From assembly GCA_964469335.1 (NCBI GenBank), contig CAYXYK010000003.1:132674-196673 (forward strand): 64,000 nt of DNA, written 5' to 3'. Numbering within the stretch: position 1 is the first letter of the stretch; each line of letters begins with the position of its first letter. Both the position numbers and the translations under genes were made by a program. This stretch comes from an uncultured Candidatus Saccharibacteria bacterium. GTDB lineage: Bacteria > Patescibacteriota > Minisyncoccia > Phycocordibacterales > UBA6899. The notes under the pieces are model-generated. The model had not been told where the DNA came from, ran no database searches, and saw only the letters and a list, made by a program, of their open reading frames with translations. Of the stretch, positions 33,568-49,984 are shown in pieces.

Positions 33568-33585
33568 TTTCCGGTACTCGTAGAA

Positions 33586-33610: not shown

Positions 33611-33701
33611 CTTTGTACCTGCGCGAAGAACTTGAGCAAAAATAGAACGATGCTATCATGAAAATAGCTGCTCATCCCACTAACCCCGAAGGAGGAATGC
33701 C

Positions 33702-33860
33702 ATGCGTTTGAACCCGCGACACAGTGGAGAAAGACTCTCGCGATCGGCCCTCAATCAAGAACTGCGCGCTCAGCTGTCCGAACTGCGCGCACTCCTCCTC
33801 TACTTCGGTTCCGCCGAGATCGTGGTGCTTCACTACTACGACTTCGTGCGGTATGCATGA
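33702..33860 (+). CDS. unlisted 52-aa small ORF
   Basis: GAAGGAGG lies 6 nt before the ATG. Promoter TTGAGC-N16-TATCAT upstream. Hairpin GGAGCC/GGCTCC downstream. Product MRLNPRHSGERLS... Confidence 0.3.
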   Translation: MRLNPRHSGERLSRSALNQELRAQLSELRALLLYFGSAEIVVLHYYDFVRYA

Positions 33861-33882
33861 CCCCACACCCACCAGCACAAGC

Positions 33883-33913
33883 GGAGCCCCATGGCTCCGC
33901 TTCGCTCGTTTTC
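33883..33913 (+). terminator. putative terminator for the small ORF
   Basis: Hairpin GGAGCC-ccat-GGCTCC followed by a T-rich tract. Confidence 0.35.
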
Positions 33914-33918
33914 TGTAA

Positions 33919-33950
33919 TAAAAAAGCAGGGCCCGGGGGCCCGCTTCAGT
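33919..33950 (-). terminator. intrinsic terminator for 33960..34256
   Basis: GC-rich hairpin (GCGGGCCC/GGGCCC..GC) with T6 on the minus strand. Confidence 0.4.
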
Positions 33951-33959
33951 ACGGTGTGT

Positions 33960-34256
33960 TCAGCCTTGTTGCTGCTGCACACGGTTCGGTTGGAGTGAGG
34001 TCGCTTCGACGACGAGCGGAGTCCGTCTCCGGAACTGGATCAGGATTTCGCGGTACGCTGCGGGCGTGGGAGTGCCTTCCGGGGTTGCGAGTTGTGCTTC
34101 GCAGGACTGCTGATCGTAGTGGACCAGCCGCACCGTTCCCGAGAGATGTGCGACGCTCGCATCGACCCGATCGACGACCTGTGCTGCGGTCGTTTCATTT
34201 GTTCCGGGTGCGAATGCGACCCGGATCGGCAGCGAAGGATCTTCAGCTTGGTACAT
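33960..34256 (-). CDS. hypothetical small protein
   Basis: 98-aa ORF. Confidence 0.45.
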   Translation of the reverse strand: MYQAEDPSLPIRVAFAPGTNETTAAQVVDRVDASVAHLSGTVRLVHYDQQSCEAQLATPEGTPTPAAYREILIQFRRRTPLVVEATSLQPNRVQQQQG

Positions 34257-34407
34257 GGCGAACTCCTTTCAGTAGTGAACGCCTGTTATCGTTATATTCC
34301 TATTGGGAAAAACGTCAATGAGCTTTCAATGAAAAAGGTGCATATCGCTCCTCTTCTTTGTCGAGAAAGGAGTACAATGGGGAGATAATAACTAATCTCA
34401 ACGATCT

Positions 34408-34677
34408 ATGACCGTAGTCATGAAAGAGCAGGGATGTGTGGCATCGACCATCGGCTATTACTTGGTCATCATCGGTGCGATCAATTGGGGCCTCGTCGGG
34501 CTCAGTGATTTCACAATGATGAATCTCAATGTCGTGAACCTTCTCGTCGGGGGAATGCCGACGCTCGAGTCACTCGTCTATATTGCCGTCGGAGTCGCCG
34601 GAGTGATGACACTCATCGGGTGCAGATGCTCTACCTGCAAGGCCTGCCGCGTCGAAGGGGGAAACCCACAAAAATAG
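34408..34677 (+). CDS. DUF378-family small membrane protein
   Basis: Motif IIGAINWGLVGL and a 2-TM layout typical of the YuiB/DUF378 family. Confidence 0.55.
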   Translation: MTVVMKEQGCVASTIGYYLVIIGAINWGLVGLSDFTMMNLNVVNLLVGGMPTLESLVYIAVGVAGVMTLIGCRCSTCKACRVEGGNPQK

Positions 34678-34679
34678 CG

Positions 34680-34790
34680 AGCTTCTTCGTTGCGGGTCCC
34701 AACCTACTCAGTCAACATAGGAAGACTACGTCTTCTTCGCAGGTATTCCCGCGTCTCGAATCTCATCAATTTTTGCGAGTTTCAAGATAA
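34680..34790 (+). repeat. intergenic element, family copy R6
   Basis: Hairpin ACATAG-gaaga-CTACGT (34715-34731, one mismatch) enclosed by GCGGG/CCCGC. Flanks resemble R1 and R8. Confidence 0.45.
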
Positions 34791-34806
34791 GTAATTGTTT
34801 GCAAAC

Positions 34807-34834
34807 AAAAACTCCCGCAGTTAGCGGGAGTTTT
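34807..34834. terminator. bidirectional terminator hairpin CTCCCGC-agtta-GCGGGAG
   Basis: A-run before and T-run after. Serves the convergent rnr gene. Confidence 0.55.
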
Positions 34835-34840
34835 CTGTAT

Positions 34841-36913
34841 TTAGAGCAATTGCATTGCGATAAGTTTGCGATTCATATCCACCGCGCTTACCTTTGCACG
34901 AAGTTTGTCGCCGAGGCGATAGATCTTTCCATGGGTTTTGCCGACGATGCGATAGTTCTTCTCTTCGAAGAAATAGAAATCGTTCGGGATATCCTTCACA
35001 TGGATCATGCCTTCCGCCTTGGTGACCTCGTCCTCGACATAGATGCCCCATTCGGTCACTCCCGAGATGGTGCCGTTTATCTCCGTGCCGATACGGTCAT
35101 AGAAGTACTCGCACTGCTTGTATTTGATCGACGAACGCTCCGCGTCCGCAGCCTGCACTTCCATCTGCGAGCAGTAGCGCGCGAGCCGTTCTTGTTCCTC
35201 GAGCGATTTCTTCGGAACCGGTTTGCCTTCGAGGTAGTGCTGGAGGAGTCGATGGACCATCAGGTCGGGGTAGCGTCGGATAGGGGAAGTGAAGTGGGTA
35301 TAGTGCTCGAACCCGAGTCCGTAGTGACCGATGTTCTTGGTGGTATAAACGGCCTTCGCCATCGCGCGTACGGTCGCCATCTGGATCATCGACTCTTCCG
35401 CCTTCCCGCGGATATCCTCGAGCATCTGATTGATCGCGGTCGATGTGACCTGCATATGTTTATCGAGTTTGAGGTCGACTCCGACGCCGTGAAGGAAGTC
35501 TCGTAGGTCTCGGATCTTGTCTTCGTTCGGTGCATCGTGGACGCGGTAGACGAACACGCTCTCTGCCCGCTTGTCCTTCGTGGCGATCAGTCGCGCGACG
35601 TGTTTGTTCGCGAGCAGCATGAATTCCTCGATCAGTTTGTTGGTATCTTGGATCTGTTTCTTGTAGACACGGATCGGCTTGCCTTTCTCGTCGAGCTCGA
35701 ATCGCACCTCTTCCGCTTCGAATGCGATCGCTCCATTCTGGAGTCGTGCTTTGCGCAGTTCTTTTGCTGTCCGGTCGAGCGAGATGAGTGAGTCAGTGAG
35801 TGCTTTCTCGTATTTGTGTCCGAGGATCGGACTCTTCTTCGATTTGTCCGTCACTGCATCGAGCACCGCCTGTGCCTCTTCATAGTAGAAACGTTTCGCT
35901 GAGTGGATGATGGTACGTCCGAACCATTCATTTATCACATCGCCCTTCTCGTTCATTTCGAACACCGCGCCGAAGGTGAGTCGGTCTTCGTTCGGCACGA
36001 GTGAGCAGATGCCGTTCGAAAGGCGCTCAGGGAGCATCGGGATGGTGCGGTCGACGAGGTAGACACTCGTTGCACGCTCGACCGCTTCTTTGTCGATGGT
36101 CGAGTGGGGGGTGACATAGTAGGAGACATCGGCGATATGTACGCCGACCTCGATATTGCCGTTCGGGAGTTTCTGCCACGAGAGTGCGTCATCGAAGTCT
36201 TTCGCGTCCTTCGGGTCGATGGTATGTGTGAGGATGTCGCGGAAGTCTCTGCGTTTCTTGATCTCATCTTCGGGGATCTGAAGCGGGATCGCTTCGGCTG
36301 CCGCCTCGACTTCGGGAGGGAACGAGGTCTCGAATCCGCGCTCCAAGACGATCGCTTCCATCTCCGCATTGTGCTCATCCGGTGTGCCGAGCACTTTGAG
36401 CACTTCGCCGATCGGCTCTTTCGCAGGGTCGTCCCATTTCGTCATCGCGACGAACACTTTATCTCCGAGTTTCGCGCCATGGAGCATGTGCTTCGGGATC
36501 AGCATGCTGCGGTATACGCGATGGTCGTCCGCTTCGAAGAAGAAGCTACCTTCCTGCTGTTCGATCCGTCCCGCGAAACGAGTCTTGTTTCGGACGAGGA
36601 CCTTGGTCACTTCGCCTCCTTGTTTCGCGCCGGCGCGTTTGCTGTACAGAGTCACTTCGACGCGGTCACGGTCGAGCGCGCAGTTGAGCCCGCGAGGATC
36701 GATCTCGACATCTTCTTTCATGCCTTCTACTTCGACATAGCCGACACCCTTCGCAGTGATGCGGATGGTACCCTCGACCTGATGCTGTGGAGGGAATTTC
36801 GGATGGGAGTGCTGTCCGGATTGTGGCCGTGCGGATTGCTTCGCACGCCGGTCATCCTTCTCTTTCTTCGCTTCTTCTTTTGGTCGATACTGTTTCTTGA
36901 TGAATTTGGTCAT
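34841..36913 (-). CDS. rnr: ribonuclease R (RNase II family 3'-5' exoribonuclease)
   Basis: 690 aa with cold-shock, RNB and S1 domain motifs and a basic N-terminal tail. Confidence 0.85.
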   Translation of the reverse strand: MTKFIKKQYRPKEEAKKEKDDRRAKQSARPQSGQHSHPKFPPQHQVEGTIRITAKGVGYVEVEGMKEDVEIDPRGLNCALDRDRVEVTLYSKRAGAKQGGEVTKVLVRNKTRFAGRIEQQEGSFFFEADDHRVYRSMLIPKHMLHGAKLGDKVFVAMTKWDDPAKEPIGEVLKVLGTPDEHNAEMEAIVLERGFETSFPPEVEAAAEAIPLQIPEDEIKKRRDFRDILTHTIDPKDAKDFDDALSWQKLPNGNIEVGVHIADVSYYVTPHSTIDKEAVERATSVYLVDRTIPMLPERLSNGICSLVPNEDRLTFGAVFEMNEKGDVINEWFGRTIIHSAKRFYYEEAQAVLDAVTDKSKKSPILGHKYEKALTDSLISLDRTAKELRKARLQNGAIAFEAEEVRFELDEKGKPIRVYKKQIQDTNKLIEEFMLLANKHVARLIATKDKRAESVFVYRVHDAPNEDKIRDLRDFLHGVGVDLKLDKHMQVTSTAINQMLEDIRGKAEESMIQMATVRAMAKAVYTTKNIGHYGLGFEHYTHFTSPIRRYPDLMVHRLLQHYLEGKPVPKKSLEEQERLARYCSQMEVQAADAERSSIKYKQCEYFYDRIGTEINGTISGVTEWGIYVEDEVTKAEGMIHVKDIPNDFYFFEEKNYRIVGKTHGKIYRLGDKLRAKVSAVDMNRKLIAMQLL

Positions 36914-36971
36914 TCTGGATGTATTCGTTTTTTTTTGCTTATCGTTTATATCTTACTTCTACTTTCCGTCT

Positions 36972-37601
36972 TTACATCCCTTTATCGACGAAGCTTCCGA
37001 GCGGTGTCCCAGATCCCGCGCGCTCATCTCGAGATGGCGGAACGATGCGATCGAGCGTGGAGGGATGGAGGTGTACTTCCTGCGAGCGGAGCATCTCACC
37101 GTCCTGCATGTCATCGATCAGTTTTTTGATGTCATTGGGTCTCGCGATGTATGCGGCGATGAGGTTGATGTTCTCTCCGGCGGTCTCGAAATGTACGGTC
37201 CCGAAATTGAGCAGCGTCTGGATCACACCGGACTGGGTCACTGACACGTTCTGGATATGATCGATACGGAACGACGAGGACTTCCGTCGGAAGAATCCCT
37301 TCTGCTCGATATCGAAGATGCGGATATCGGTGATCAGAAGCACATTGAGGAAGTAGTTCGTCCAGATGTTCCATCCCATGATCCAGACGATGATCAGCCA
37401 TGCGACCAAGAAGAAGGTGCTTGCCGCCGCGTTACTACCTTCGAGGATGATAAATTTGCCAACCGGGATGATATTGAGGAGGAATATCCCGACCACAGGT
37501 ATCGCGACCGCAAAGATGAGCATGAAGATCTTCCCGAGCAGCACGAACCAGTGGTCCCACACCACCTTCACTACTTGCTCGTGGTCATCGATCTCGATCA
37601 T
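36972..37601 (-). CDS. YdbT-like membrane protein with bacterial PH (bPH_2) domain
   Basis: Two TM helices followed by a PH-like domain. Overlaps the upstream gene (ATGA). Confidence 0.5.
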   Translation of the reverse strand: MIEIDDHEQVVKVVWDHWFVLLGKIFMLIFAVAIPVVGIFLLNIIPVGKFIILEGSNAAASTFFLVAWLIIVWIMGWNIWTNYFLNVLLITDIRIFDIEQKGFFRRKSSSFRIDHIQNVSVTQSGVIQTLLNFGTVHFETAGENINLIAAYIARPNDIKKLIDDMQDGEMLRSQEVHLHPSTLDRIVPPSRDERAGSGTPLGSFVDKGM

Positions 37602-37852
37602 ACGCTCACGGTTGAAGTCGAATAAGCGATCAAGGAGAGTGCAAGCGCGCCGAACAGGATCGCGGACCCGATGAAATAGTAGATATTCATCCGCACCACC
37701 TTGAGCTTGTCGTTGCCGTAATGTTTCCAGTGATAGCGCACCACGATCATATGGATGAGCCAGATGACGAGCAGGAAGACGAATACCCCGACAAGGAAGT
37801 TTCCTGAGAGCGGGATGTGCACGGTAAGGTCGCTGGAAAGCAGTGATTCCAC
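37598..37852 (-). CDS. YdbS-like small membrane protein (start uncertain; GTG at 37852 or ORF-table start 37999)
   Basis: Hydrophobic 2-TM ORF in operon with 36972..37601. The upstream part of table ORF 37598..37999 overlaps the rpsP promoter. Confidence 0.3.
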   Translation of the reverse strand: MESLLSSDLTVHIPLSGNFLVGVFVFLLVIWLIHMIVVRYHWKHYGNDKLKVVRMNIYYFIGSAILFGALALSLIAYSTSTVSV

Positions 37853-37953
37853 ACCCTTAGTATAGCGGAAAACGGCGATTTTGGAACCAAACGGCTTTGT
37901 TGAGAGATTTTTGAGTAAAAGTGGGGATAATCGGAAGGATTCGTGCGAAAAGT

Positions 37954-37981
37954 TGACCAAATACAGCGCCTCTGCTAATAT
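37954..37981 (+). promoter_or_regulatory. promoter TTGACC-N16-TAATAT for rpsP
   Basis: The -10 box ends 8 nt before ATG 37990, giving a leaderless or very short leader. Confidence 0.4.
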
Positions 37982-37989
37982 CCTCCTAC

Positions 37990-38394
37990 ATGTTAGCAAT
38001 CAGATTAAAGCGCGTCGGCCGCACCAATGACCCTTCATTCCGCATCATCGTGCAGGATCATCGCCGTTCACCAAAGAAGACCCGCGGCGTCGCAGAGTAC
38101 GTCGGTTCGTATGACGCACGCAAAGGCAAGCCGCAGATCGATGCAGAGCGCGTGAAGTACTGGATCAGTATGGGCGCTCAGCCTTCGGACACCGTGCACA
38201 ATCTCCTTGTCGGAGCAAAGATCATCGAAGGCAAGAAGGTCAACGCAATGAACAAGAAGACAAAGCCGGTCAAGGAAGTTCCGAAGGAAGAAGCAAAGAA
38301 AGCAGCCCCCGCAGCACCCGCCGCAGAAGCCGCTCCCGCTCCAGTGGAGGAAGCTCCCGCAGAAGCAGCAGCAGAGGCCACTCCCGCCGCATAA
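37990..38394 (+). CDS. rpsP: ribosomal protein S16 (bS16) with Ala/Pro/Glu-rich C-terminal extension
   Basis: N-terminus MLAIRLKRVGRTNDPSFRIIV. The tail is KKAAPAAPAAEAAPAPVEEAP.... Confidence 0.8.
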   Translation: MLAIRLKRVGRTNDPSFRIIVQDHRRSPKKTRGVAEYVGSYDARKGKPQIDAERVKYWISMGAQPSDTVHNLLVGAKIIEGKKVNAMNKKTKPVKEVPKEEAKKAAPAAPAAEAAPAPVEEAPAEAAAEATPAA

Positions 38395-38413
38395 CTTACG
38401 AAATGAAAACAAA

Positions 38414-38441
38414 ACACCCCCTGCGTGGGGTGTTTTGTTTT
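38414..38441 (+). terminator. intrinsic terminator
   Basis: Hairpin ACACCCC-ctgcgt-GGGGTGT followed by a T-run. Confidence 0.55.
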
Positions 38442-38560
38442 GTCTCGGGGTGCACATGGTTATTATTTCCGTTATCGGCTGGGGCTAACCCCTCTCGCTT
38501 GTGGGTGTGCATTCTCTCTGCCTCACATATAATAGTGAAATTACGATTCAATTTAATTCC

Positions 38561-41500
38561 ATGAGATCATCTCGCCTGTTCGTGCTGCTTCTTCTTTCGA
38601 TCATGCCACTCCTGGCATCGACTCCGTTCGTCTTTGCGCAGTCTGAGACGGTGACAATGGGGGAGACCGCACTCGTCAGTGACGATGATTCTGGAAATGG
38701 AGGGCTTCTGCTTGCGCAGCAGGCGACACTCGCCCAATCAGGCACACTCCAGTCACTCTCGTTCTATGTAGCAGGGGCGAGCGGCAAGCTTAGGCTCGGA
38801 GTCTATGATGCGACAGGACCGGGCGGCGGACCGGGAGCTAAGCTCGCGGAAGCCGCAGAGATCACTCCGGTAGTCGGGTGGAACACCGCACCAGTCGTGA
38901 CTCCTGTCGCGCTCGCCGCAGGGACATATTGGCTCGCGTATGCACCCGAGAGCAGCAGTCTTCATTTTCGGCTTGTACAAGGGGTAGGCACACTTCGCTA
39001 CTACACGAAGGCGTACGGAGTGATGCCAACAACATTTTCAACTTCCCCGACTTCGTATAGTGGGCACTGGTCTTTCTACGCGACACTTGCAACTTCCGGC
39101 ACCCCGACACCTCCTCCCGCACCAACCCCTGTGAACGGCTCATGTGGAACTGCCAACAATGTCTCGGTCACTTCGATCCCCACGAGCAATCTCTGCAGCG
39201 TCGGCACTGCGTCAAGTGTCTCAGGAACAGGACCATGGAGTTGGACCTGTGCAGGAACGAATGGGGGAACCACAGCGAGTTGTGTTGCACCACTTACGGT
39301 CGTGACTCCTCCTGCTCCGACACCGACACCCAGCCCGTCTCCGTCCCCGGCACCTACTCCCGCTCCCTCCGGTAGCAACCCCCTCTCGACGCTCGCGGCG
39401 AGCATGACCCCCGGCACTTGGGCGCAACTTCCCGTGTCGAATCAAAATAGTGTTCTCGGCGTAGGTAGTGTTTCGGGAAGTATGATCCACTTTGTGAATT
39501 CCATGCCGTGGAATCCGATCAATAAACAGATCGAGATCATCGGGCAGGATCACGGTTACCCCGGCATGCGGCATGTGCGTTACGACTCTATTGCGAATCA
39601 GTTCGTGCTCGTTGCAGACAACGCGGGTATTCCTAATTCCGGTCACGGCTATGATCATATGTCGGTGAATCCGAACACGGGCGATCTCTATGTGCGACTT
39701 TACGGTGCCTTTAGTGGTGTGATCTCGTCCGTGAAGAAAACTTACGGAACATCAAACTTTGTGAGTATTCCTGATGTGCCCGCGTCAGCACAGGTGGCGA
39801 TCGGCACCGTGTGGTGGTCGGGGCCATTTATCGGTGGGGGAAGTCAGGGCTCATTCATGGTGTTCAACAGTGGCAATGCAGATATTTACAATGCAGGTGG
39901 ACTTGCATCTGATGGGCAGATCGTCGCATACAATCCGCTTACGAACTCTTGGTTCTACAATCAAACAGGGAGGTCACCATTTTATAGCAACGGGGGCAGT
40001 TATACGTATCACAGCATTATGGAATATAGTCCCATAAAGAATGTTGCTGTATATGGTGGCGGAAATGAGGCAAACAATAAACTCTGGCGGATGGATTCAA
40101 CCGGCGCAGTACAAGCAATGCCCAATGTCCCCACAGGTACCGCTGTTGGTATTCAGCAGGGCAATCTTGTGAACGACCCGGTTACTGGCAATTTCCTCCT
40201 TCTTTCTGGCGGACAACTTTGGGAGCTAAATCCTGATGGCGCTGGGACTTGGACGAAGAAAACCTCGCCCCCAAGCGGAGTCGGTGATCCGAAGGCACCA
40301 GCGGGAGTTGTTTCATCATCGATCACTGATTACGGTGTGGTGGCATACATATCGCAAACAAGTGGAACTGGTGGAACCTTCTTTCTCTATAAGCCGGCAA
40401 CATCAGGCGGCACTCCAACTCCCACCCCGCCACCACCCCCTCCTCCCGCCCCAACTCCGACACCTACGCCAACACCAACTCCACCCCCGCCGCCTCCACC
40501 ATCACCAACTCCCGCACCATCGACCAAGTTCACTATTGGTGCCCGTGTGCAGGTCTCGTCGGGTCCACTTAACGTACGCAGCACTGCGAACACCGTAGGC
40601 GCATTGCTCGGTACTCAGCAAACAGGGGCACTCGGTACGGTCACGTCCGGACCAACTGCACAAGGAGGATACAACTGGTGGAACGTGAACTTCGATAGTG
40701 GAGTTGATGGTTGGAGTGTTGAAGATTTTATGGTGACCTACGTGCCTCCACCAACACCACCGCCAGCCCAAACACCCTCTCCCACGCCGCCAGTCAGTAG
40801 CGCAGATTTCACAACGCGTTGTAGCGCTGCGGGGGTCGTGAAGTGTGTCGGATTTGATTCAGCATCCGACTTCAATACGGGCACCGGTGGGACAAATGGT
40901 GCATACGGACAAAACTACGGCATCTTTCCTCCTTCGGGAACTTCAGACTATACACGTGCCACTCAAGACACCGCACTCAAAGCCTCAGGCAATGGGTCAC
41001 TGAAATTTACCATCCCTTCAAATTCGGGTTCAGACACATCGGGTTCTTGGTTCACCAATTTTTCGAGTGACCTCAATACCCAATTTGATGGTGGCGAAGA
41101 ATTTTATGTGCAGTGGCGCCAGCGCTTTAGTCCGGAGTATTTGACGACAAGTTATGCAGGTAGTGGTGGCTGGAAGCAGGTCATTATCGGTACTGGTGAC
41201 AAACCGGGACAGCCTTACTCTTCCTGTTCTTCGCTCGAACTCCCTGTGCAGAATACGTACCTCCGAGGTTTTCCAGTTATGTACAACTCGTGCAGCGGCT
41301 CCACCTCACACGGCCCTTATAATCCTTTTGAAGAGCCATTTGGGAATTATGATTTTAAACTCCAGAATGCACGACCTGCACCGTACTGTCTCTACTCACA
41401 AAGCAGTACCGGATACTTTCCTCCTAACGGAAATTGTTTCGGTTACGTCGCGAACGAATGGATGACATTCCAAGTACATGTGAAGCTCGGTGCCCGCATT

Positions 41501-43936
41501 GGAGACGAATTCAAGAATAGTTATGTTGAGCTTTGGCTCGCACGTGAAGGTCAGCCTTCCCAGCAGTTGTTCAATTGGGGTCCATACAATTTGACCGCAG
41601 GCTCGTTAACTGAAAATCAAAAATTTGGAAAGGTGTGGTTGCTTCCGTATCAAACAGGGAAGTCCTCAGCGCAGTCGCACCCCACCGCATACACGTGGTA
41701 CGACGAACTCATCATCTCGCGCAACAAGATCGCTGATCCGACTGTTACAGGCGGCACCCCAACTCCAACCCCTCCACCACCACCCCCTCCTGCACCAACC
41801 CCAACTCCAACTCCCACACCTCCGCCAAGCCTCACCCCCGCACCATCAACAAAGTTCGCACTGAACGATCGCATTCAAATGACCGAGAATGTGAATGTAC
41901 GCGCAACGGCAAACACTGCCGGCACACTCTTGGGTACACAAACAACAGGCACTCTTGGCACCATCATTGGTGGTCCTATCGCACAAGGAGGATACAACTG
42001 GTGGAACGTGAACTTCGATAGTGGAGCCGACGGTTATGCAGCGGAAGACTTTATGTTAAAGTATGTCGTACCCGTTACTCCGCCGACAGCACCTTCCTCA
42101 GGCGCGACAGCGCTCTCAACGCTTGCTGCAGGAATGACCCCCGGCACTTGGGCGCAGCTCACTCCTTCGAATCAGAACTTCGTACTCGGCGTTGGCAACA
42201 TCTCCGGATCGATGATCCACTACATGAACTCTGCCGCCTGGAATCCGATCACGAAGAAGCTCGAGATCATCGGGATGGATCACAATTGGGGAAGCGAGCG
42301 CTACGCGCAGTATGACGCGATGACCAATGCATTCGTACTCGTCTCGAACGACGTCGGTTTCGGAAGCAGTGTCCGTCACGGCTACGACCACAATGCGGTG
42401 AACCCGTACACCGGCGTCGTGTATAACCGACTCTCGAACATCGCTTCCGGGGTTCTTTCTATCCGCTATACCAACTCCGGTTCGGCGAGTTTTGCCTCAA
42501 CTCCCGACATCGCAACCGGCTATGATCAGATCGCCGTAGGCTCCGCATGGTGGTCGGGCTCGTTCACCGGAGCGGGAAGTCAGGGTGCGTTCTTCATCTA
42601 CAATAGCGGTGACTCGAACGGCTCCGCCACGGACGGACATATGGTCGCGTACGACCCGGTGAAGAATTCATGGATATTGAACAAACACGGTGTCTCGCCG
42701 AACTACTCCGTTACTGGCAGCACCTATCACAGTGTGATGGAATACAGCCCAGTGAAGAATGTTGCGGTCTACGGCGGCGGCAACGATGCAACGACGAGAC
42801 TCTGGAAGATGGATTCGACCGGTACGGTCACTGCGATGCCGAATGTCCCGACAGGGAAGGGCGTCGGCATTCAGCAAGGCAATCTTGTGAATGATCCGGT
42901 CACCGGCAACTTCCTGCTGCTCTCGGCGGGGGAGCTCTGGCAGCTCAACCCCGACGGCGCGGGCACTTGGACGAAGCTTGCGAATCCTCCCTCGGGAGTC
43001 GGAATTCCCGGACCTTCAGTCACCGACGGCGTCATCTCTTCCGCGATATCGGAATACGGAGTCATCGTCTACGTGAAACAGACTTCTTCGACCGGTGGAA
43101 CGTTCTATCTCTACAAACCCGCAAGCGGAGGCACTGTCACCCCGTCACCAACTCCTTCTCCAACCCCGACTCCCACTCCGACTCCGTCCCCATCACCAAC
43201 TCCAACCCCCGCACCCTCCACCAAATTCACACTGAGCACACGCATCCAAGTCTCCTCAGGACCTCTCAACGTCCGCAGTACGGCCAATACCTCGGGCACC
43301 CTCCTTGGTACACAAGCCACCAATGCACTCGGTACCATCTCGGGAGGACCCACCGCACAAGGAGGATATAGCTGGTGGAATGTGAACTTCGATAGTGGTG
43401 TCGACGGCTACGTGGCAGAAGACTTCCTGGTGACATACACTGCACCGACACCTGCACCAGTTACACCTCCAACTCCCGCACCAGTCTCCCCACCCGCAGC
43501 AACACCACCAACGCCAACTCCTCCCGCATCCGGCGGAGGCGGCGGGGGAGGTGGCAGTACGCCAACCCCACCACCCACTCCTCCTTCCTCTGGAGGTGGG
43601 GGAGTCGGATCATACGGAGGCGGCGGCAGTGTCTATACTCCTCCTGCTCCCGTCACTCCGGTCGCTACTTCCACCAAAGCAACCACCACTCCGAAGCTCA
43701 CCCTCACCAAGAACCTCTACCGCGGTCTCAAACACGCAGAGGTACTCAAGCTTCAGAACTTCCTCATCACACTCGGCTACCTTGCCAAAGACTCTGCCAC
43801 CGGGTACTACGGACCACTCACGCAGAAGGCAGTACAAACGTACCAGTGTGCAAGCCTGAAGCTGTGTTCCGGTACTCCTCAATCGAACGGCTATGGCAAT
43901 GTCGGACCCAAGACCAGGAAGCAGATGGCTGGGTAG
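38561..43936 (+). CDS. giant secreted modular cell-surface protein (1791 aa from Met 38561)
   Basis: Signal peptide MRSSRLFVLLLLSIMPLLASTPFVFA. Modules in order: a Cys-containing small module, beta-propeller-like domain A (about 39370-40390), Pro/Thr linkers, SH3b-like module 1 (about 40514-40740), ConA-like lectin/lyase-like domain (about 40800-41740), SH3b 2 (about 41845-42064), duplicate domain A' (about 42101-43120), SH3b 3 (about 43213-43440), poly-Gly/PT region, and a C-terminal PG_binding_1-like domain. Confidence 0.7.
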   Translation: MRSSRLFVLLLLSIMPLLASTPFVFAQSETVTMGETALVSDDDSGNGGLLLAQQATLAQSGTLQSLSFYVAGASGKLRLGVYDATGPGGGPGAKLAEAAEITPVVGWNTAPVVTPVALAAGTYWLAYAPESSSLHFRLVQGVGTLRYYTKAYGVMPTTFSTSPTSYSGHWSFYATLATSGTPTPPPAPTPVNGSCGTANNVSVTSIPTSNLCSVGTASSVSGTGPWSWTCAGTNGGTTASCVAPLTVVTPPAPTPTPSPSPSPAPTPAPSGSNPLSTLAASMTPGTWAQLPVSNQNSVLGVGSVSGSMIHFVNSMPWNPINKQIEIIGQDHGYPGMRHVRYDSIANQFVLVADNAGIPNSGHGYDHMSVNPNTGDLYVRLYGAFSGVISSVKKTYGTSNFVSIPDVPASAQVAIGTVWWSGPFIGGGSQGSFMVFNSGNADIYNAGGLASDGQIVAYNPLTNSWFYNQTGRSPFYSNGGSYTYHSIMEYSPIKNVAVYGGGNEANNKLWRMDSTGAVQAMPNVPTGTAVGIQQGNLVNDPVTGNFLLLSGGQLWELNPDGAGTWTKKTSPPSGVGDPKAPAGVVSSSITDYGVVAYISQTSGTGGTFFLYKPATSGGTPTPTPPPPPPPAPTPTPTPTPTPPPPPPPSPTPAPSTKFTIGARVQVSSGPLNVRSTANTVGALLGTQQTGALGTVTSGPTAQGGYNWWNVNFDSGVDGWSVEDFMVTYVPPPTPPPAQTPSPTPPVSSADFTTRCSAAGVVKCVGFDSASDFNTGTGGTNGAYGQNYGIFPPSGTSDYTRATQDTALKASGNGSLKFTIPSNSGSDTSGSWFTNFSSDLNTQFDGGEEFYVQWRQRFSPEYLTTSYAGSGGWKQVIIGTGDKPGQPYSSCSSLELPVQNTYLRGFPVMYNSCSGSTSHGPYNPFEEPFGNYDFKLQNARPAPYCLYSQSSTGYFPPNGNCFGYVANEWMTFQVHVKLGARIGDEFKNSYVELWLAREGQPSQQLFNWGPYNLTAGSLTENQKFGKVWLLPYQTGKSSAQSHPTAYTWYDELIISRNKIADPTVTGGTPTPTPPPPPPPAPTPTPTPTPPPSLTPAPSTKFALNDRIQMTENVNVRATANTAGTLLGTQTTGTLGTIIGGPIAQGGYNWWNVNFDSGADGYAAEDFMLKYVVPVTPPTAPSSGATALSTLAAGMTPGTWAQLTPSNQNFVLGVGNISGSMIHYMNSAAWNPITKKLEIIGMDHNWGSERYAQYDAMTNAFVLVSNDVGFGSSVRHGYDHNAVNPYTGVVYNRLSNIASGVLSIRYTNSGSASFASTPDIATGYDQIAVGSAWWSGSFTGAGSQGAFFIYNSGDSNGSATDGHMVAYDPVKNSWILNKHGVSPNYSVTGSTYHSVMEYSPVKNVAVYGGGNDATTRLWKMDSTGTVTAMPNVPTGKGVGIQQGNLVNDPVTGNFLLLSAGELWQLNPDGAGTWTKLANPPSGVGIPGPSVTDGVISSAISEYGVIVYVKQTSSTGGTFYLYKPASGGTVTPSPTPSPTPTPTPTPSPSPTPTPAPSTKFTLSTRIQVSSGPLNVRSTANTSGTLLGTQATNALGTISGGPTAQGGYSWWNVNFDSGVDGYVAEDFLVTYTAPTPAPVTPPTPAPVSPPAATPPTPTPPASGGGGGGGGSTPTPPPTPPSSGGGGVGSYGGGGSVYTPPAPVTPVATSTKATTTPKLTLTKNLYRGLKHAEVLKLQNFLITLGYLAKDSATGYYGPLTQKAVQTYQCASLKLCSGTPQSNGYGNVGPKTRKQMAG

Positions 43937-44032
43937 CTGAATTCGTTGACCAAAACGCCTCAATAGCCCATAATTGGACTTGCAATGGAGCGATCCAGAG
44001 CAGCGCACATTTAACAGGTAGCAAGTAAAGAT

Positions 44033-44359
44033 ATGGCTGAAACATTCAGTGACAAGGAGTTCCTCGAATTCGTGGTGAAGAACCTTGTCGATAAACCGGA
44101 CGCAGTCAAAGTGACTCGTGTGGTAGACGAAATGGGAGTATTACTGACACTCGATATCGATCCTGAAGACATGGGCAAGGTGATCGGACGCATGGGCAAC
44201 ACTGCCAAGGCGGTCCGCACTCTGCTTCGCGTCGTCGGAATGAAGAACAATGCGCGTGTGAACCTGAAGATCAACGAGCCTGAGGGCGGCAAGCGTGCCG
44301 GACAGGTGGCATCGGATTCGTCGGACGTATCTGACATCATCGCCGATCTCAAAGCTTAA
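44033..44359 (+). CDS. KH-domain RNA-binding protein (UPF0109 family)
   Basis: Motif VIGRMGNTAKAVRTLL. Normally lies between rpsP and rimM/trmD. Confidence 0.7.
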   Translation: MAETFSDKEFLEFVVKNLVDKPDAVKVTRVVDEMGVLLTLDIDPEDMGKVIGRMGNTAKAVRTLLRVVGMKNNARVNLKINEPEGGKRAGQVASDSSDVSDIIADLKA

Positions 44360-44552
44360 ATTTCCAAATCGAGCTTCTCGCTCGAGTTTCTCAAAACAGA
44401 CCCAGTCGTCGTACTCCGAGTACGCCTTCCGGGTCTGTTTTGCTATTACTCTCGAGATGTATCTCGATTAGGTATCTTCACAATGAGTCAACTCAAGGAT
44501 TCGCTTTTGATCTAAAATTTCTTCGAGTCTTCAAGTGATGGAATTTGGAAAT
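44360..44552 (+). repeat. composite MITE-like element, family copy R7, with 10-bp terminal inverted repeats ATTTCCAAAT/ATTTGGAAAT
   Basis: Terminal inverted repeats at 44360-44369 and 44543-44552. Nested hairpin: outer AACAGACCC/GGGTCTGTT, inner CGTAC-tccga-GTACG (44395-44441), followed by a T-run. Second hairpin CTCGAGAT/ATCTCGA. Confidence 0.45.
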
Positions 44553-44771
44553 GCCCTGGTGGTGCATTCAAAATATCGCTCCTGGTATATCAACGCAAAC
44601 AGGGAATTTTGAATGAAAGACTCACTTCATGAAGCGTGTTTTTCGCTCGATTCGAAATTGTTGGATCCCTCTGTCCCCACATGGCAAGAAGTTCGTGAAC
44701 TTTCCCAGTAAAAAATTTGCTACACTGAGGAAGTAAAATATTGTTCATAAAGTCTCCATTTCCCAACTTCG

Positions 44772-47492
44772 ATGTTACGATCACTCCGTACAAGGGTCAT
44801 CTTGCTCATAGTCGCTGCTGTCACAGTATGTCTCTTTTTTTTCTTTTTTCTAGAGATTAGCATTAATACGAAGCTGTATAGTGCGCAGATGGAAAAAGAA
44901 ATTCTCGTGTCAGTGAAAATGAGCATAGAGAAAGTGGACCACTACACTCATGTAATGGAACAAAAATCGACCGACCTTGCGCGTACGGGTGAATTTTTCT
45001 ACACACTTCGCAAAGATTCTCCAAAAAAGAACCTTGATGCTGAGATGGAAAAATATCTTACTGAGAATTTTTCCACGTTCCGCGAAGCGATCGGCGGCGG
45101 AATATGGTACGAACCATATAAATTTTCTGCAGATAAGCAATATTATGGTCCCTATGCATTCTGGAATAAAGAGAAGGTGATATTCACCTGGGACCTCACC
45201 GCGCCGGAATATGATTATCTTACACAAGACTGGTACACCATCGCGCTTCCGCCAGATTGGAGTAGGTCAAAGAAGCGTGCACAAGATCATTATTGGACAG
45301 CACCATATTATGACGAAGCTGGGACATTCCAACTTATGATCACCGTCGATGCTTTTATGTATGACGAAAAAGGGATGATCATCGGAATCACCACAGCAGA
45401 TTGGTCAATAGAAAAAATGGTCAACTTCCTTCGAGAATCGAAAATCACCGAGGATAGTGGGATTTTTCTTGTAGAAGGTGGTTCAAATATGGTCATGACC
45501 AACACACTCGCGCCAGAATCAGTGATGAAAGATGCGAACACCGTTCCGTGGATGAAGCTTCTCGTTTCACCCGAGAAAGGCAACATCAAAGAAACAGCAG
45601 TGAGCATTGGTGGAACGTCATACTATGCGTACTACGCCTTAACAGATGCGGGAATGCTGTATGGCACATTGGTCCCACATCACGTATTGTCTGACCCTGC
45701 GAATAAACTACTCACGATAAGTATCGGTATGAGTATATTTTTTGGAGTACTCCTGATCATTGTTTTGTATTTTATCTTATCAACGGTGACCAATCCCATC
45801 ATTGCGTTAACAAAAGTAGTGACGCGAGTTGCCGGTGGAGATCTCTCCTCACAAATAAAAATATCCTCAGAAGATGAGATCGGCCAACTCGCAACATCAT
45901 TCAACTCTATGACTCAGAAATTGGCCGAAATGTACGCAAATTTAGACGAGAAGGTGAAAGAAAAGACCTCCCAACTCACTCAGCAGATACATGAAACGAA
46001 AATGCACGCTGAGGAGCTCAGGAAATTCCAACTAGCAGTAGAAAATACTTCCCAACATATTATTATAACCGACAGAGATGGCACCGTTCTCTATGCAAAT
46101 CCGGCGGTCGCCTCCACAACCGGATTTGCTCGGGAAGAAGTGATTGGCAACAATCCTTCGTTGTGGGGGAAACAAATGTCTAAAGAGTTTTATGAACAAT
46201 TATGGCATACGATTCTTGTCGAGAAAAAGACATTTACAGGTGAGGTACAAAACAAGCGCAAGAATGGTGAGCACTATATTGCCTTAGCGATTATTTCTCC
46301 GATCGTCGACAATACTGGCGAAGTAAAATTCTTCATCGGAATTGAGACGGATATCACCAGACAGAAAGAGTTTGAAAAAATGCTTGCAGATGAAAAAGAC
46401 CATGTCGACAAACTGGTCATCGAGAGGACAAGAGAGCTCAAGCAAGAACATGCACGCCTACTTTCTTCGATCAACAGTCTCTCATTTGGGTTCATTGTTG
46501 CCGACACGGAAGACCGGATAATCCTCAAGAACAAAGCTATGAGTCAACTTTTCGAGTTTCGTGAGGGTGATGTGCTGAGCATTGAGCGTATTTCTTCACT
46601 GCTTGGTGAACATTTTGATCTGAGAATGAGGGTTGAACAATGCTTCAGAGATAAGGCGGCGTGCGAGATAAAAGAAATTGTTTTTGGTAAGCGTTTCTTG
46701 CGCGGGATTATTGCGCCGGTCATGACCGAAGATAATATGGAGAAACTCGGCTACGTCCTTCTTCTCGAAGATATTACCGAGGCAAAGGTGATGGAGCGCA
46801 GCCGTGACGAATTCTTTGCAGTTGCGTCGCATGAGCTTCGCACGCCGCTTACTGCCATTCGGGGGAATGCAGACATGTTGCTGGACTTGCCCGCTGATCA
46901 AAAAATAGATGCGGACATGAGAGGTATGCTCAGTGATATCAATGCGTCGAGTATCCGACTCATCGAGATAGTTAATGATTTTCTTGAAGTATCACGCCTT
47001 GAGCAGGGAAAATTCAATATGAAGAAAGAGTGTTTCCCCGCAGTACTTGTGGTCGAAAAGGTGGTCAGAGATTTGGGGGAGATGATCGGCAAAAAAGGTA
47101 TCTCACTCCGATTTGCTCCACCAAGCTCGCCACTGCCGGATGTATTAGCGGATAAAGATCGTTTCGAACAGGTGTTGCTCAACTTGGTCGGGAATTCCGC
47201 AAAATTCACAAAAGAAGGCAGTGTGACTATAGAGCTGGAACAACAGGACAAATTCATTAAAGTTCGCGTCACTGACACGGGGATTGGCATATCGCAACAG
47301 AATCAGACCTTACTGTTCCGCAAGTTCCAACAGGCCGGTGAGAGTGTACTCGCAAGGGATATTGCACAGGGCACAGGTCTGGGTTTGTATATATGCAAGA
47401 TTATTGTCAATGCTATGGGTGGAGAGATTGGTATCGAGCGTAGCGAGCTCGATAAAGGGAGCACCTTTTTCTTTACGCTTCCGATATCATAG
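44772..47492 (+). CDS. sensor histidine kinase (TM - double-Cache-like periplasmic domain - TM - HAMP - PAS x2 - HisKA - HATPase_c)
   Basis: HisKA H-box AVASHELRTPLTAIRGNADML and GxGxG HATPase motifs. PAS-like NTSQHIIITDRDGTVLYAN. No response regulator gene nearby. The gene is distinctly lower in GC than its neighbours. Confidence 0.75.
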   Translation: MLRSLRTRVILLIVAAVTVCLFFFFFLEISINTKLYSAQMEKEILVSVKMSIEKVDHYTHVMEQKSTDLARTGEFFYTLRKDSPKKNLDAEMEKYLTENFSTFREAIGGGIWYEPYKFSADKQYYGPYAFWNKEKVIFTWDLTAPEYDYLTQDWYTIALPPDWSRSKKRAQDHYWTAPYYDEAGTFQLMITVDAFMYDEKGMIIGITTADWSIEKMVNFLRESKITEDSGIFLVEGGSNMVMTNTLAPESVMKDANTVPWMKLLVSPEKGNIKETAVSIGGTSYYAYYALTDAGMLYGTLVPHHVLSDPANKLLTISIGMSIFFGVLLIIVLYFILSTVTNPIIALTKVVTRVAGGDLSSQIKISSEDEIGQLATSFNSMTQKLAEMYANLDEKVKEKTSQLTQQIHETKMHAEELRKFQLAVENTSQHIIITDRDGTVLYANPAVASTTGFAREEVIGNNPSLWGKQMSKEFYEQLWHTILVEKKTFTGEVQNKRKNGEHYIALAIISPIVDNTGEVKFFIGIETDITRQKEFEKMLADEKDHVDKLVIERTRELKQEHARLLSSINSLSFGFIVADTEDRIILKNKAMSQLFEFREGDVLSIERISSLLGEHFDLRMRVEQCFRDKAACEIKEIVFGKRFLRGIIAPVMTEDNMEKLGYVLLLEDITEAKVMERSRDEFFAVASHELRTPLTAIRGNADMLLDLPADQKIDADMRGMLSDINASSIRLIEIVNDFLEVSRLEQGKFNMKKECFPAVLVVEKVVRDLGEMIGKKGISLRFAPPSSPLPDVLADKDRFEQVLLNLVGNSAKFTKEGSVTIELEQQDKFIKVRVTDTGIGISQQNQTLLFRKFQQAGESVLARDIAQGTGLGLYICKIIVNAMGGEIGIERSELDKGSTFFFTLPIS

Positions 47493-47556
47493 CTATTCGG
47501 GCTATGGAGCATCGAAATGACATCGGGGAAACGGGCATCGGATTTCATTCAAAGAA

Positions 47557-47586
47557 CCCCCGCTCGAAAGGCGGGTATTCTTTTTG
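47557..47586 (+). terminator. intrinsic terminator
   Basis: Hairpin CCCGC-tcgaaag-GCGGG followed by a T-rich tract. Confidence 0.5.
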
Positions 47587-47587
47587 C

Positions 47588-47615
47588 TTGACCTCAGAAC
47601 GGATGTGAGTATTCT
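47588..47615 (+). promoter_or_regulatory. putative promoter TTGACC-N16-TATTCT
   Basis: Upstream of 47654. AAGGAG lies 6 nt before the ATG. Confidence 0.3.
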
Positions 47616-47653
47616 CAATGCTAGCGTTCTGTTCTATCGAGAAGGAGACACTC

Positions 47654-47941
47654 ATGAAGAATATCACCAACGCCCTGAAGGAATTTTTCGCATACTGCAT
47701 GTGGCCGGCGATACTGCTCTTCGAGATCGGTAACTTCCCACCGCGCTATCGGACCGAAGCGCGCTGGTGCGTGTTCTGGGTCGTCGTCGCCACCGCACTC
47801 CTCTTTGCCCTCGTCTGCTATCTGGATTCGTGGTGGGTCAAGGTCCCGCTCGCGATCGTCTCGATCATCCTCTACTTCGTTGCCGGACTTTTCCTCGCGA
47901 TCGGCCTCATTGCTGCCGTGACACCTGAGGAGGAATATTGA
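47654..47941 (+). CDS. small membrane protein
   Basis: 95 aa with 2-3 TM helices. Confidence 0.5.
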   Translation: MKNITNALKEFFAYCMWPAILLFEIGNFPPRYRTEARWCVFWVVVATALLFALVCYLDSWWVKVPLAIVSIILYFVAGLFLAIGLIAAVTPEEEY

Positions 47942-47946
47942 ATCGA

Positions 47947-47976
47947 CCGCAGCTTCGGCTGCGGTTTCTCTTTTTC
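47947..47976 (+). terminator. intrinsic terminator
   Basis: Hairpin CCGCAGC-ttcg-GCTGCGG followed by a T-rich tract. Confidence 0.5.
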
Positions 47977-47999
47977 ATAAATTACGCTAGTCTGTATGC

Positions 48000-48683
48000 A
48001 TGATCCGTTTTCATGTCGTTTCACTCTTCCCGGAGACCGTCGAGCCCTACGTCACGAGCTCGATTTTGGGGCGTGCGATCGAGGACAAGAAGATGTCCGT
48101 GAAGTATTACAATCCGCGCGATTTCACCCGCGATAAATGGCGCCGCATCGATCGCCGTCCGTATGCGGGCGGACCCGGTATGGTGATCGAAGCCGAACCG
48201 TTCTTGAAGGCGGTCGCAAAAGCGAAAGGAAAAAAAGAGAAGCGGGTGAAGACCGTGTTCTTCGCCACCGACGGGAAACAATTCACCAACACGCTCGCAC
48301 GTAAATGGGCAAAGGACTACGACGATATCATTTTCATCTGCGGTCGCTACGAGGGTATCGATGCACGTGTGCAAAAGATCACGAAGGCAGAGAAGATCTC
48401 GATCGGTCCGGTCGTGTTAACCGGGGGAGAGATCCCCGCGATGCTCGTGATCGATGCAGTCGCGCGTCAGGTGCCCGGCATTCTCGGTTCATTTGAGTCG
48501 GTCGAGGAGGAGCGCACTGCTTCTCCCGACGTCTATACTCGCCCCGAAGTCTTTGTGTGGAAGAAAAAAAAGTATGCTGTGCCCAAGGTGTTACTGGGAG
48601 GAAACCATAAGGAAATTGAACTTTGGAAGAAAAAACAGCTCGACCGCAAGAAGCCGAAACCAAGCGTAGAAACAATCTCCTAA
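48000..48683 (+). CDS. trmD: tRNA (guanine37-N1)-methyltransferase
   Basis: TrmD motifs FHVVSLFPE and GRYEGIDARV. Has a Lys-rich C-terminal tail. Confidence 0.85.
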   Translation: MIRFHVVSLFPETVEPYVTSSILGRAIEDKKMSVKYYNPRDFTRDKWRRIDRRPYAGGPGMVIEAEPFLKAVAKAKGKKEKRVKTVFFATDGKQFTNTLARKWAKDYDDIIFICGRYEGIDARVQKITKAEKISIGPVVLTGGEIPAMLVIDAVARQVPGILGSFESVEEERTASPDVYTRPEVFVWKKKKYAVPKVLLGGNHKEIELWKKKQLDRKKPKPSVETIS

Positions 48684-48685
48684 CT

Positions 48686-49984
48686 ATGTCCGAGGAACTC
48701 CGTCACGAAAATGTCGAAGAGACTCCGGTCGAAGCGGAAGTTGTCGACCCGTACCTTGCGTTCCGCGATGAGCGAATGAGGTCATGGCGTGAGGGTGATG
48801 CGCCTATCGTCGAACGAGCGGAATTCGAGCGCCAGTCGTATCAGAACAGCCTCGAGAATATGCAGCACTTCAGTGAGCAATTCGAAAAGCGCGCAGAGTC
48901 ATTACGAGGTGATATTGATGAGAAAAAATCCGGTCTGCTCTCACGCATCCTCCATTTCAGGCAGATCCGTGACCTCGAGTCCGAGCTTGGTATCACCGAG
49001 CACCAGGCACGTCGCTCGCGAGAGATGGCAGATGAACGTGCACAGCTCATCGCTCAGTATGACCGTATCATCGCCGAAGAGAACGAACTCGGTGCGCTGA
49101 TGGAAGAGGCGCAAAAGGAGAATGAAGCCTGGGACGAGGAGAAACGCCATGACTACCTTGAGAGTGAACGGAGACGTGATCTCACACAGCTCTCTCGCGA
49201 ACACAAGACATTTTTCGTGCATGACATCGTGACTGCGGCATGGAAACCATCCGAGAACAACGAGGCAGTGAATACCAAACAAATGGACTGGGGTGATCAG
49301 TTCGACGTCTTGCTCGGACTGGAGCCGACGATTGCCGCATCGACACTCGATCATGCACATGGAGGGGAACAACGGACCTTTGGTCAACAGAGTTGGGGTG
49401 TGTTTCTTTCGGGGGGACGTGTGCTCGGCGGCAATGTTGTCGATGCGGGCACACGCGCATACGGTCTCTATGATCGCGTGGTGCCGAAAGGGAAGGATGA
49501 CCCCGATGCGATCGAGCACGCGATCACCGGCCGCGGAGAAGGACACAATGAACTTATCATCGAGAAGCCAGAGATCGCCGGAGTGTATGCGAAATGGTTC
49601 CCAGATATCCCGCTTCTCCCGGAAATGTCACTCCAGAACACCAAGTCGGTTGGCTATGACGGATGGTGGAAGAACATGCGAAAGGTGATGGATCGCAATG
49701 TCCCTGTTTTTGTACTTACACAGGACGGCAGGACCAAGATGCTTTACGACATCGACCCCGAATCCCGCACCTTCAAGGTCACTGATGCGGAGTTCGAGCC
49801 CGAGCACCTGAGCGACCTCCCTGGCATCTATAAACAGCATCTTGGGGAAGAGGAGCGAAAGAAAGCGGTCATGCGTGTGTTCGACAAGGTCTCGGGTGCG
49901 CTCACCGAGGACCAGAGGGAACAGTTCGCTCCGGACAGCAGCGAGCATACTCCTGACGATTCGCCATACCGACTCCATCAGTGA
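48686..49984 (+). CDS. hypothetical acidic protein
   Basis: 432 aa. Starts 2 nt after the trmD stop. Confidence 0.5.
   Translation: MSEELRHENVEETPVEAEVVDPYLAFRDERMRSWREGDAPIVERAEFERQSYQNSLENMQHFSEQFEKRAESLRGDIDEKKSGLLSRILHFRQIRDLESELGITEHQARRSREMADERAQLIAQYDRIIAEENELGALMEEAQKENEAWDEEKRHDYLESERRRDLTQLSREHKTFFVHDIVTAAWKPSENNEAVNTKQMDWGDQFDVLLGLEPTIAASTLDHAHGGEQRTFGQQSWGVFLSGGRVLGGNVVDAGTRAYGLYDRVVPKGKDDPDAIEHAITGRGEGHNELIIEKPEIAGVYAKWFPDIPLLPEMSLQNTKSVGYDGWWKNMRKVMDRNVPVFVLTQDGRTKMLYDIDPESRTFKVTDAEFEPEHLSDLPGIYKQHLGEEERKKAVMRVFDKVSGALTEDQREQFAPDSSEHTPDDSPYRLHQ

Follow-up and report, generated by a model that had tools for sequence, protein, structure and literature searches.

A giant mosaic surface protein, probably wall-tethered and glycan-directed, encoded by a strain-specific insertion in the rpsP-KH-trmD locus

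In Gram-positive surface proteins and cell-wall hydrolases, such as those of Clostridium perfringens represented by the structures 2kyb and 2kt8, non-covalent wall-binding modules of the SH3b and PG_binding_1 types flank functional domains. Polysaccharide-cleaving enzymes are known from another setting: a processing enzyme is the usual occupant of exopolysaccharide loci, and AlgL, PslG and ExoK are secreted polysaccharide-cleaving enzymes encoded within biosynthetic clusters. For bacteria of the candidate phyla radiation (CPR), associations with Zoogloea in flocs and a set of carbohydrate-active enzymes have been reported (PMC11393006, PMC10031880). Here we describe a 5.4-kb gene for a 1791-aa protein in a 64-kb stretch of contig CAYXYK010000003.1 (hereafter the window), located between rpsP and a KH-domain gene upstream of trmD. 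Judged from its sequence, the design of the protein resembles both multimodular carbohydrate-active surface proteins and Gram-positive wall-bound proteins, and its exact architecture appears to be unique. In contrast to the Gram-positive wall hydrolases, it has no muralytic domain and carries a β-propeller and a polysaccharide-lyase-like unit as its cargo. We propose that it is a wall-tethered, glycan-directed mosaic protein that was horizontally inserted and probably cleaves an acidic exopolysaccharide, a reading to which we assign a probability of roughly 0.55.

The gene is a single unbroken open reading frame (ORF) running from an ATG at 38561 to a stop at 43936 (window coordinates, plus strand unless stated otherwise), and the identical 1791-aa sequence is found in a public protein collection as a singleton cluster. 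The product begins with a Sec-type signal peptide (residues 1-26, 38561..38638; MRSSRLFVLLLLSIMPLLASTPFVFA followed by QS), whose n-, h- and c-regions can be read from the sequence and which is the sole hydrophobic segment of the protein. Next come an accessory module distantly related to DUF4082, here called N0 (residues 27-178, 38639..39094), a module of ~55 aa with four cysteines (4-Cys module, residues 192-243, 39134..39289) and a predicted six-bladed Kelch-type β-propeller (domain A, residues 271-613, 39371..40399). SH3b module 1 (residues 654-727, 40520..40741) precedes domain B, a predicted β-jelly roll with a polysaccharide-lyase-like fold and six conserved cysteines (residues 746-1062, 40796..41746). 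SH3b module 2 (residues 1096-1169, 41846..42067), a second, diverged Kelch-type propeller (domain A', residues 1182-1521, 42104..43123) and SH3b module 3 (residues 1553-1626, 43217..43438) follow. A Pro/Thr/Gly-rich linker (residues 1627-1710, 43439..43690) then leads to the C-terminus (43691..43933), which comprises PG_binding_1 (residues 1725-1762) and a short Cys-containing tail. The modules are separated by Pro/Thr-rich (PT) linkers encoded by a degenerate repeat of 22 copies, and each module holds an even number of the 12 cysteines.

An earlier note on this DNA, made from the sequence alone, had listed these modules with the exception of N0 (~150 aa), which it overlooked. Every module on its list is present, domain searches confirmed the C-terminal peptidoglycan-binding domain, and structure comparison supports the propeller-like and polysaccharide-lyase-like folds it had predicted for A and B. 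Its estimate of roughly 60% identity between A and A' agrees with the 61% protein identity found by BLASTP (2e-150; 65% at the DNA level), although the two copies have one exact 23-mer in common (39404 and 42134) rather than several. The identical stretch it had reported in the SH3b modules exists as an exact 41-mer, at 40661-40701 and 41984-42024 instead of about 40668 and 41988, with a third copy at 43358 that has three mismatches; none is expected by chance. SH3b-1 and SH3b-2 are in fact identical over 46 nt (40658-40703 and 41981-42026), although they diverge outside this patch and are only 65% identical overall, which suggests local gene conversion.

PG_binding_1 (PF01471) scored 32 bits against the full-length protein and 40.3 bits (E 3.5e-10) when the C-terminus was searched in isolation, in both cases above the gathering cut-off of 23. 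A scan of the protein for LP.[TSA]G detected no LPXTG motif, and a C-terminal hydrophobic or transmembrane segment was also absent. The protein does not qualify as an MSCRAMM or sortase-anchored protein, its NCBIfam MSCRAMM matches being low-complexity noise (16.8 bits against a cut-off of 999). Together, the single N-terminal hydrophobic segment, the missing LPXTG motif and the even number of cysteines per module fit an extracytoplasmic, non-covalently attached protein, and PG_binding_1 would be the non-covalent wall anchor. SH3_3 (PF08239) scored 28.3 bits for the whole protein, slightly over its cut-off of 27 (best stretch 1569-1623, in module 3), and the modules scored singly reached 22, 20.2 and 11.7 bits, each under the cut-off. 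A profile of 16 related SH3 modules matched the SH3b structures 2kyb (E 2.8e-5) and 2kt8 (E 1.9e-4), and nine of the 16 modules matched SH3_3 itself (best E 6.6e-7). SH3b homology of the three modules is therefore likely, and the formal family membership of each copy is marginal. A small second PG_binding_1 protein is encoded elsewhere in the window (domain at 55528-55668, minus strand, in ORF 55162-55902). Its domain is 42% identical to the anchor of the giant protein, and it is a conserved core gene of 225 aa in the relatives L092-L095.

N0 matched Pfam DUF4082 (PF13313) at 16.9-17.2 bits (E about 0.005-0.0065), under the gathering cut-off of 28.4, and five of 13 N0 relatives matched the same family (best E 1.9e-5), suggesting that N0 is a distant DUF4082 relative at best. 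Its fold is probably a carbohydrate-binding-like β-sandwich. The module recurs at 50-69% identity in more than 100 multidomain proteins, where it is combined with glycoside-hydrolase-like, FG-GAP/VCBS, β-helix and PKD domains. For the 4-Cys module (GxCG...LC...GPWxWxCxGxNGG...C) no Pfam family and no NCBIfam or PDB sequence match was found. Elsewhere it occurs as tandem arrays of up to 21 copies (P0252, P0255, P0258, P0271-P0288) in proteins of CPR bacteria, Alphaproteobacteria and Bdellovibrionales, where the module frequently precedes OmpA domains, and it is an undescribed repeat family.

Neither A nor B gave a significant Pfam, NCBIfam or PDB sequence match, and their folds were assigned by comparison of predicted structures. 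The model of A has six four-stranded blades, and its nearest structures are Kelch propellers, pointing to a Kelch-type fold. Its identity to six-bladed Kelch propellers such as muskelin (8ttq), the kelch domains of KLHL proteins and the bacterial NanM/YjhT (2uvk) is 7-15%. The Pfam Kelch signature was not reached, with Kelch_6 (E 0.49) as the only match, and relatives of A match Kelch below the cut-offs. The family is nonetheless strongly conserved, with an invariant HGYDH motif. For B, two independent methods concurred that the nearest solved structures are polysaccharide lyases (PL) of families PL20, PL14, PL36, PL13 and PL28, together with X122, Cip1 and GH131. The model appears to share the β-jelly roll with a substrate cleft of PL20, PL14 and PL36, as seen in the PL20 glucuronan lyase TrGL (2zzj), the PL14 enzymes AkAly30 (5gmt) and vAL-1 (3a0n/3gne) and the PL36 enzyme Aly36B (6kcv). 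In contrast to these lyases, B as modelled is ~80 residues longer, contains the six conserved cysteines and a low-confidence loop of 30 residues, and is paired with a Kelch propeller. A sequence relationship of B to X122 (TtX122A, 8q28) and Cip1 (3zyp) is undetectable, and the partners of these two are redox domains instead. Invariant positions of B include QWRQR, WKQ, H172, K279 to Y285 and YTWYD, and many Arg, Lys, Gln, Tyr, His and Glu positions are very strongly conserved across phyla.

Homologues of both domains are numerous: 272 of A at 55-70% identity and more than 1100 of B at 66-76% identity, the latter family forming 1430 clusters at 50% identity. A scan with the B profile, covering one genome per species, yielded 78 named loci in Burkholderiales, Bdellovibrionales, Myxococcota, Acidobacteriota, Nitrospirales, Binatia, Anaerolineae, Rokubacteria, several CPR phyla and Nitrososphaera metagenome-assembled genomes (MAGs). 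A propeller, either of the A type or a paralogue at 27-32% identity, directly adjoins B in about half of these loci, and in many phyla the two form one ORF behind a signal peptide. Representatives of the 50%-identity clusters show propeller-then-B, B-then-propeller and multiple-propellers-then-B architectures, and the partner regions of B in them give weak Kelch Pfam matches. When the DNA upstream was translated, 68 of the 79 informative loci showed a frame that continued to a signal peptide of the Sec or lipoprotein type, mostly followed by a PA/PS/PT linker. This indicates that the B family is extracytoplasmic. The upstream signals and PA/PS linkers in the same 68 loci rule out that the proteobacterial homologues of A and B are leaderless proteins, either cytoplasmic or exported by an unconventional route. 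Public gene calls for stand-alone B, and for many A, begin at an internal Met (L001 9790-10942, L082 and many of L004-L081). As read from these loci, this systematic annotation artefact removes the signal peptide and linker and gives a secreted family a cytoplasmic appearance. In the Nitrososphaera sp. MAG SMAG_U13258, a propeller-like gene and a B gene with signal peptides were found (L025 2901-3848, L028 1632-2585). This B is 64-66% identical to that of the window; either the genes crossed between domains of life or the bin is contaminated.

In each of the four Burkholderiales-type contexts examined, B is encoded within an exopolysaccharide biosynthesis locus, either together with A or without it. 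The XrtA-type Pfam gene set is present in three of them, and the fourth is an exopolysaccharide locus without those markers. The exosortase-A markers exceeded their NCBIfam cut-offs (TIGR03100, 287.5 against 168.5; TIGR03101, 230 against 202.8; TIGR03098, 780 against 592). It is the proteobacterial homologues, not the window gene, that reside in XrtA/PEP-CTERM loci. The B and propeller genes of these loci hold the same cluster position as AlgL, PslG and ExoK, suggesting by analogy a similar role, although their folds and families are unrelated to those enzymes. A literature search found no description of the propeller/B pair, which is a widespread unannotated family for which Pfam and NCBIfam have no model. 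The pair is conserved, mobile and secreted, with at least 1430 clusters at 50% identity in more than 10 phyla, and is a candidate for the missing processing enzyme of exosortase-type exopolysaccharides, polymers relevant to floc and biofilm formation.

The gene sits between rpsP (ribosomal protein S16, 37990..38394; Pfam Ribosomal_S16, E 1.7e-13) and a KhpA-type KH-domain gene (44033..44359; Pfam KH_KhpA-B, E 3e-21), with trmD, also confirmed by Pfam, at 48000-48683. To compare this site among strains, we used metagenome contigs carrying a TrmD from the 90%-identity cluster of the window TrmD (L085-L090). These contigs match the DNA of the window at 97-98% identity on either side of the gene, which they lack, the KH gene following rpsP after ~150 bp. 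The inserted segment spans 38380..44003 (5624 bp) and occupies the place of a 151-bp rpsP-KH spacer in the relatives. Its left breakpoint falls at ~38379/38380, in the last rpsP codons: blastn alignments to L085 and L086 stop at 38379, and the final rpsP codons differ between the window and the strains without the insert. The segment includes a terminator-like hairpin after rpsP (15 bp plus a T-run, 38406..38441; -24.8 kcal/mol, z = -4.7), where the empty-site strains carry a different hairpin. The right edge is marked by a promoter-like site of the KH gene (TTGACC-17-CATAAT, 43946..43974), which is kept in the empty-site strains. In more distant relatives (L092-L099), rpsP, KH and trmD are contiguous with spacers of 135 bp and 73 bp, and from this comparison the contiguous arrangement appears to be ancestral. 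Because close relatives carry the empty site between conserved flanks, the segment qualifies as a strain-specific insertion. The claim of the earlier note that a 5.4-kb gene had been inserted inside the rpsP-KH-trmD locus is thus borne out by near-identical and distant relatives alike. Its further suggestion, a tendency of the gene to recombine and to vary in length, finds no support in the strain comparison, in which presence or absence of the whole gene is the only polymorphism seen.

Both junctions were checked in an independent Logan assembly of run SRR12404947 (same strain, short reads). One contig (L104) matches the window from 32796 to 40452 at 99.9% identity and ends in the first long PT linker, and another (L091) matches 43538-52879 at 100% and begins in the Gly/PT linker. 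The PT and SH3 repeats break short-read assemblies at these two points, and the reproduction of both junctions shows that the insertion is real. A search for traces of a transposon or insertion sequence was negative: direct or inverted repeats of at least 8 nt were not found at the junctions, and the insert contains no transposase. A second strain-specific insertion is present in the same operon (44359-47556). It carries a histidine kinase ORF (44772-47492; 906 aa, PDC/HAMP/PAS) with a GC content of 0.44, compared to about 0.55 for the genome, and stands in place of 508 bp, including a 114-aa ORF, of the 97-98% identical strains; the 73-bp spacer of the more distant relatives is their KH-trmD gap. 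The spacers between rpsP, KH and trmD thus seem to act as a hot spot for insertions. The locus offers a natural experiment, since strains of 97-98% identity differ by one 5.6-kb surface-protein gene, and differences of this type are expected to determine the range of hosts or substrates.

Searches of 5.8 billion protein clusters and of JGI metagenome contigs turned up no full-length orthologue, and a metagenome scan for close full-length relatives gave five partial loci only, at 62-64% identity. The nearest architecture is that of P0251, with the order A, N0, B. Comparable CPR mosaics (a 2632-aa ORF of Giovannonibacteria, P0256, P0292 and the Vogelbacteria contig L057) likewise have a signal peptide, PT-linked modules, a C-terminal PG_binding_1 and SH3b spacers around propeller and B (or GH16). 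In the Giovannonibacteria ORF (L032 6167-14065), signal peptide, LamG, N0, an unassigned domain, SH3b, propeller, SH3b and B are followed by several FN3 and two PG_binding_1 domains, and in the Vogelbacteria contig and in Saccharibacteria contigs the propeller and B modules are flanked by SH3b. Unlike these proteins, in which module set, order and copy number differ each time and none of which is orthologous, the window protein alone shows the A-B-A' arrangement and the rpsP-KH spacer position.

The two propellers are not the product of a recent internal duplication, a possibility excluded because 85 of 120 external homologues are closer to A than A' is. The GC content at third codon positions (GC3) is 0.49-0.56 from N0 through SH3b-2, 0.70 in A' and 0.69 in PG_binding_1, compared to 0.60-0.76 in core genes. 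By this measure the 3' third of the gene looks native-like and the 5' two-thirds more foreign, suggesting that the parts differ in age. In a neighbour-joining tree of B (computed without support values), the window copy pairs with a Kaiserbacteria copy, and this pair falls inside a clade of Burkholderiales, Bdellovibrionales and Myxococcaceae. Other CPR copies are scattered over the tree, which indicates repeated horizontal transfer. The gene thus appears to be a mosaic of horizontally mobile domain cassettes, illustrating the assembly of a protein from shuffled parts (N0, Cys module, SH3b, PT linkers); by itself, the locus is a fairly ordinary accessory surface gene. The genome encodes a short RpoB (1063 aa), phosphoketolase and acetate kinase and lacks rimM. 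Together with the closest module relatives, which belong to Kaiserbacteria, this gene content suggests that the producer is probably a Kaiserbacteria-like member of the CPR (Patescibacteria).

These results suggest the following arrangement. In one strain the gene would have entered the rpsP-KH spacer, bringing along a terminator of its own that lies upstream of it. Its product would be exported by the Sec pathway and held non-covalently on the producer's peptidoglycan through the C-terminal PG_binding_1, with the three SH3b modules probably assisting wall binding. The long PT linkers would hold the glycan-directed heads outward from the wall, namely the DUF4082-like module, the 4-Cys module and the propeller and PL-like jelly-roll unit (A-B-A'). 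This unit would recognise, and probably cleave, an acidic exopolysaccharide, with N0 and the 4-Cys module contributing binding or spacing. The target would be a polymer of the host or of a neighbouring cell, and less likely the producer's own envelope. From fold and gene context we infer an adhesive or glycan-degrading role, and we likewise infer, rather than observe, catalysis, the substrate, the host-directed role and the taxon. That the protein is secreted, wall-tethered, glycan-directed and horizontally inserted is in our view highly probable. That it is a catalytic lyase acting on a host exopolysaccharide, as the modelled fold of B may indicate, is a tentative suggestion.

Several points weigh against the proposed function. 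The jelly-roll fold is also used by lectins, and propellers of this type are often binding modules alone. Domain B has no sequence or profile link to CAZy or PL families in Pfam, NCBIfam or PDB, and its identity to its structural neighbours is 11-14%. A search with the B profile against 1.84 billion representatives returned only members of its own family among the best 150 matches, with no bridge to a known PL family. X122 and Cip1, two of the closest folds, are without demonstrable activity or binding (PMC10916295). PG_binding_1 and SH3b may bind the wall of the producer or that of a target cell, the CPR affiliation rests on gene content and closest module relatives, and the central 3.1 kb (40453-43537) are supported by one assembly alone.

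The nearest competitor to a cleaving enzyme, and one we regard as rather unlikely, is a non-catalytic, lectin-type adhesive fibre, whose propellers, jelly roll, N0 and Cys module would bind glycans and tether the cell to a host, a partner or a polymer. The top folds proposed for B by both structural methods are lyases and not lectins, its many charged and polar positions are strongly conserved across phyla, and stand-alone B and propeller genes occur within exopolysaccharide biosynthesis loci. This conservation and locus position fit an enzyme better than an adhesin. The same loci raise the question of whether the protein remodels the producer's own envelope polysaccharide or capsule, as is presumed for the proteobacterial pair. 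The Burkholderiales pair is indeed encoded in the producer's own exopolysaccharide locus, and the window genome has PGA_cap/Memo and polysaccharide-deacetylase genes. Yet strains of 97-98% identity lack the gene, which shows that it is not needed for the envelope, no XrtA-type exopolysaccharide cluster was seen in the 64-kb window, and the gene, a recent mosaic, has a foreign-like GC3. We consider such a function improbable.

A peptidoglycan-directed lytic or predatory weapon, with SH3b and PG_binding_1 aimed at the wall of another cell, would agree with the use of these modules for targeting in lysins and autolysins and with the cell-wall hydrolases matched in the PDB by the SH3b profile. Giant proteins of CPR bacteria and Omnitrophota are also reportedly linked to cell-wall degradation. 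However, Pfam and NCBIfam scans detected no amidase, muramidase, glucosaminidase or peptidase domain, and homologues of A and B go with exopolysaccharide loci rather than with wall-lysis genes, so that we judge a lytic weapon very improbable. Least probable of all is an assembly artefact or a chimeric ORF produced by repeat-driven misassembly. The breaks of the short-read assembly at 40452 and 43538, the central segment present in one assembly alone and the singleton status of the protein would be compatible with it. Against this, the 5.4-kb frame is unbroken from signal peptide to wall anchor, both core-gene junctions were recovered at 99.9-100% identity in the independent assembly, the longest exact repeat of 46 nt is below typical read length, and similar architectures occur in other CPR genomes.

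The proposal of a wall-tethered enzyme that acts on exopolysaccharide can be extended, although we regard the extension as speculative and probably not correct as a whole. The propeller and jelly-roll pair would then be an unrecognised glycan-cleaving family for XrtA/PEP-CTERM exopolysaccharides, possibly a new polysaccharide lyase family, captured repeatedly by CPR episymbionts from Burkholderiales-like hosts and displayed on wall-anchored, SH3b-spaced scaffolds. If true, CPR cells would bore through or feed on the slime layer of their hosts, and differences in host range would explain why some near-identical strains have the gene and others lack it.

Three further features of the window were recorded. 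A DsbD/CcdA-thioredoxin fusion of 628 aa is encoded at 52003-53889, with MsrA and MsrB genes adjoining it in relatives. This system for extracytoplasmic thiol redox could serve Cys-rich secreted proteins such as the 1791-aa protein. An Rfam match above the gathering threshold at 32221-32308 corresponds to an 88-nt piece of bacterial 23S rRNA (model positions 2127-2214, 61 bits). The match did not reappear when 31900-32700 was scanned separately by E-value, and a mimic of the L1 leader was rejected, there being no ribosomal protein genes nearby. ARAGORN called a tRNA-Arg(TCG) of 95 nt at 49374-49468, within a 453-aa ORF (48623-49984). This call is probably a false positive, and the ORF that contains it is conserved as a 432-aa gene in relatives.

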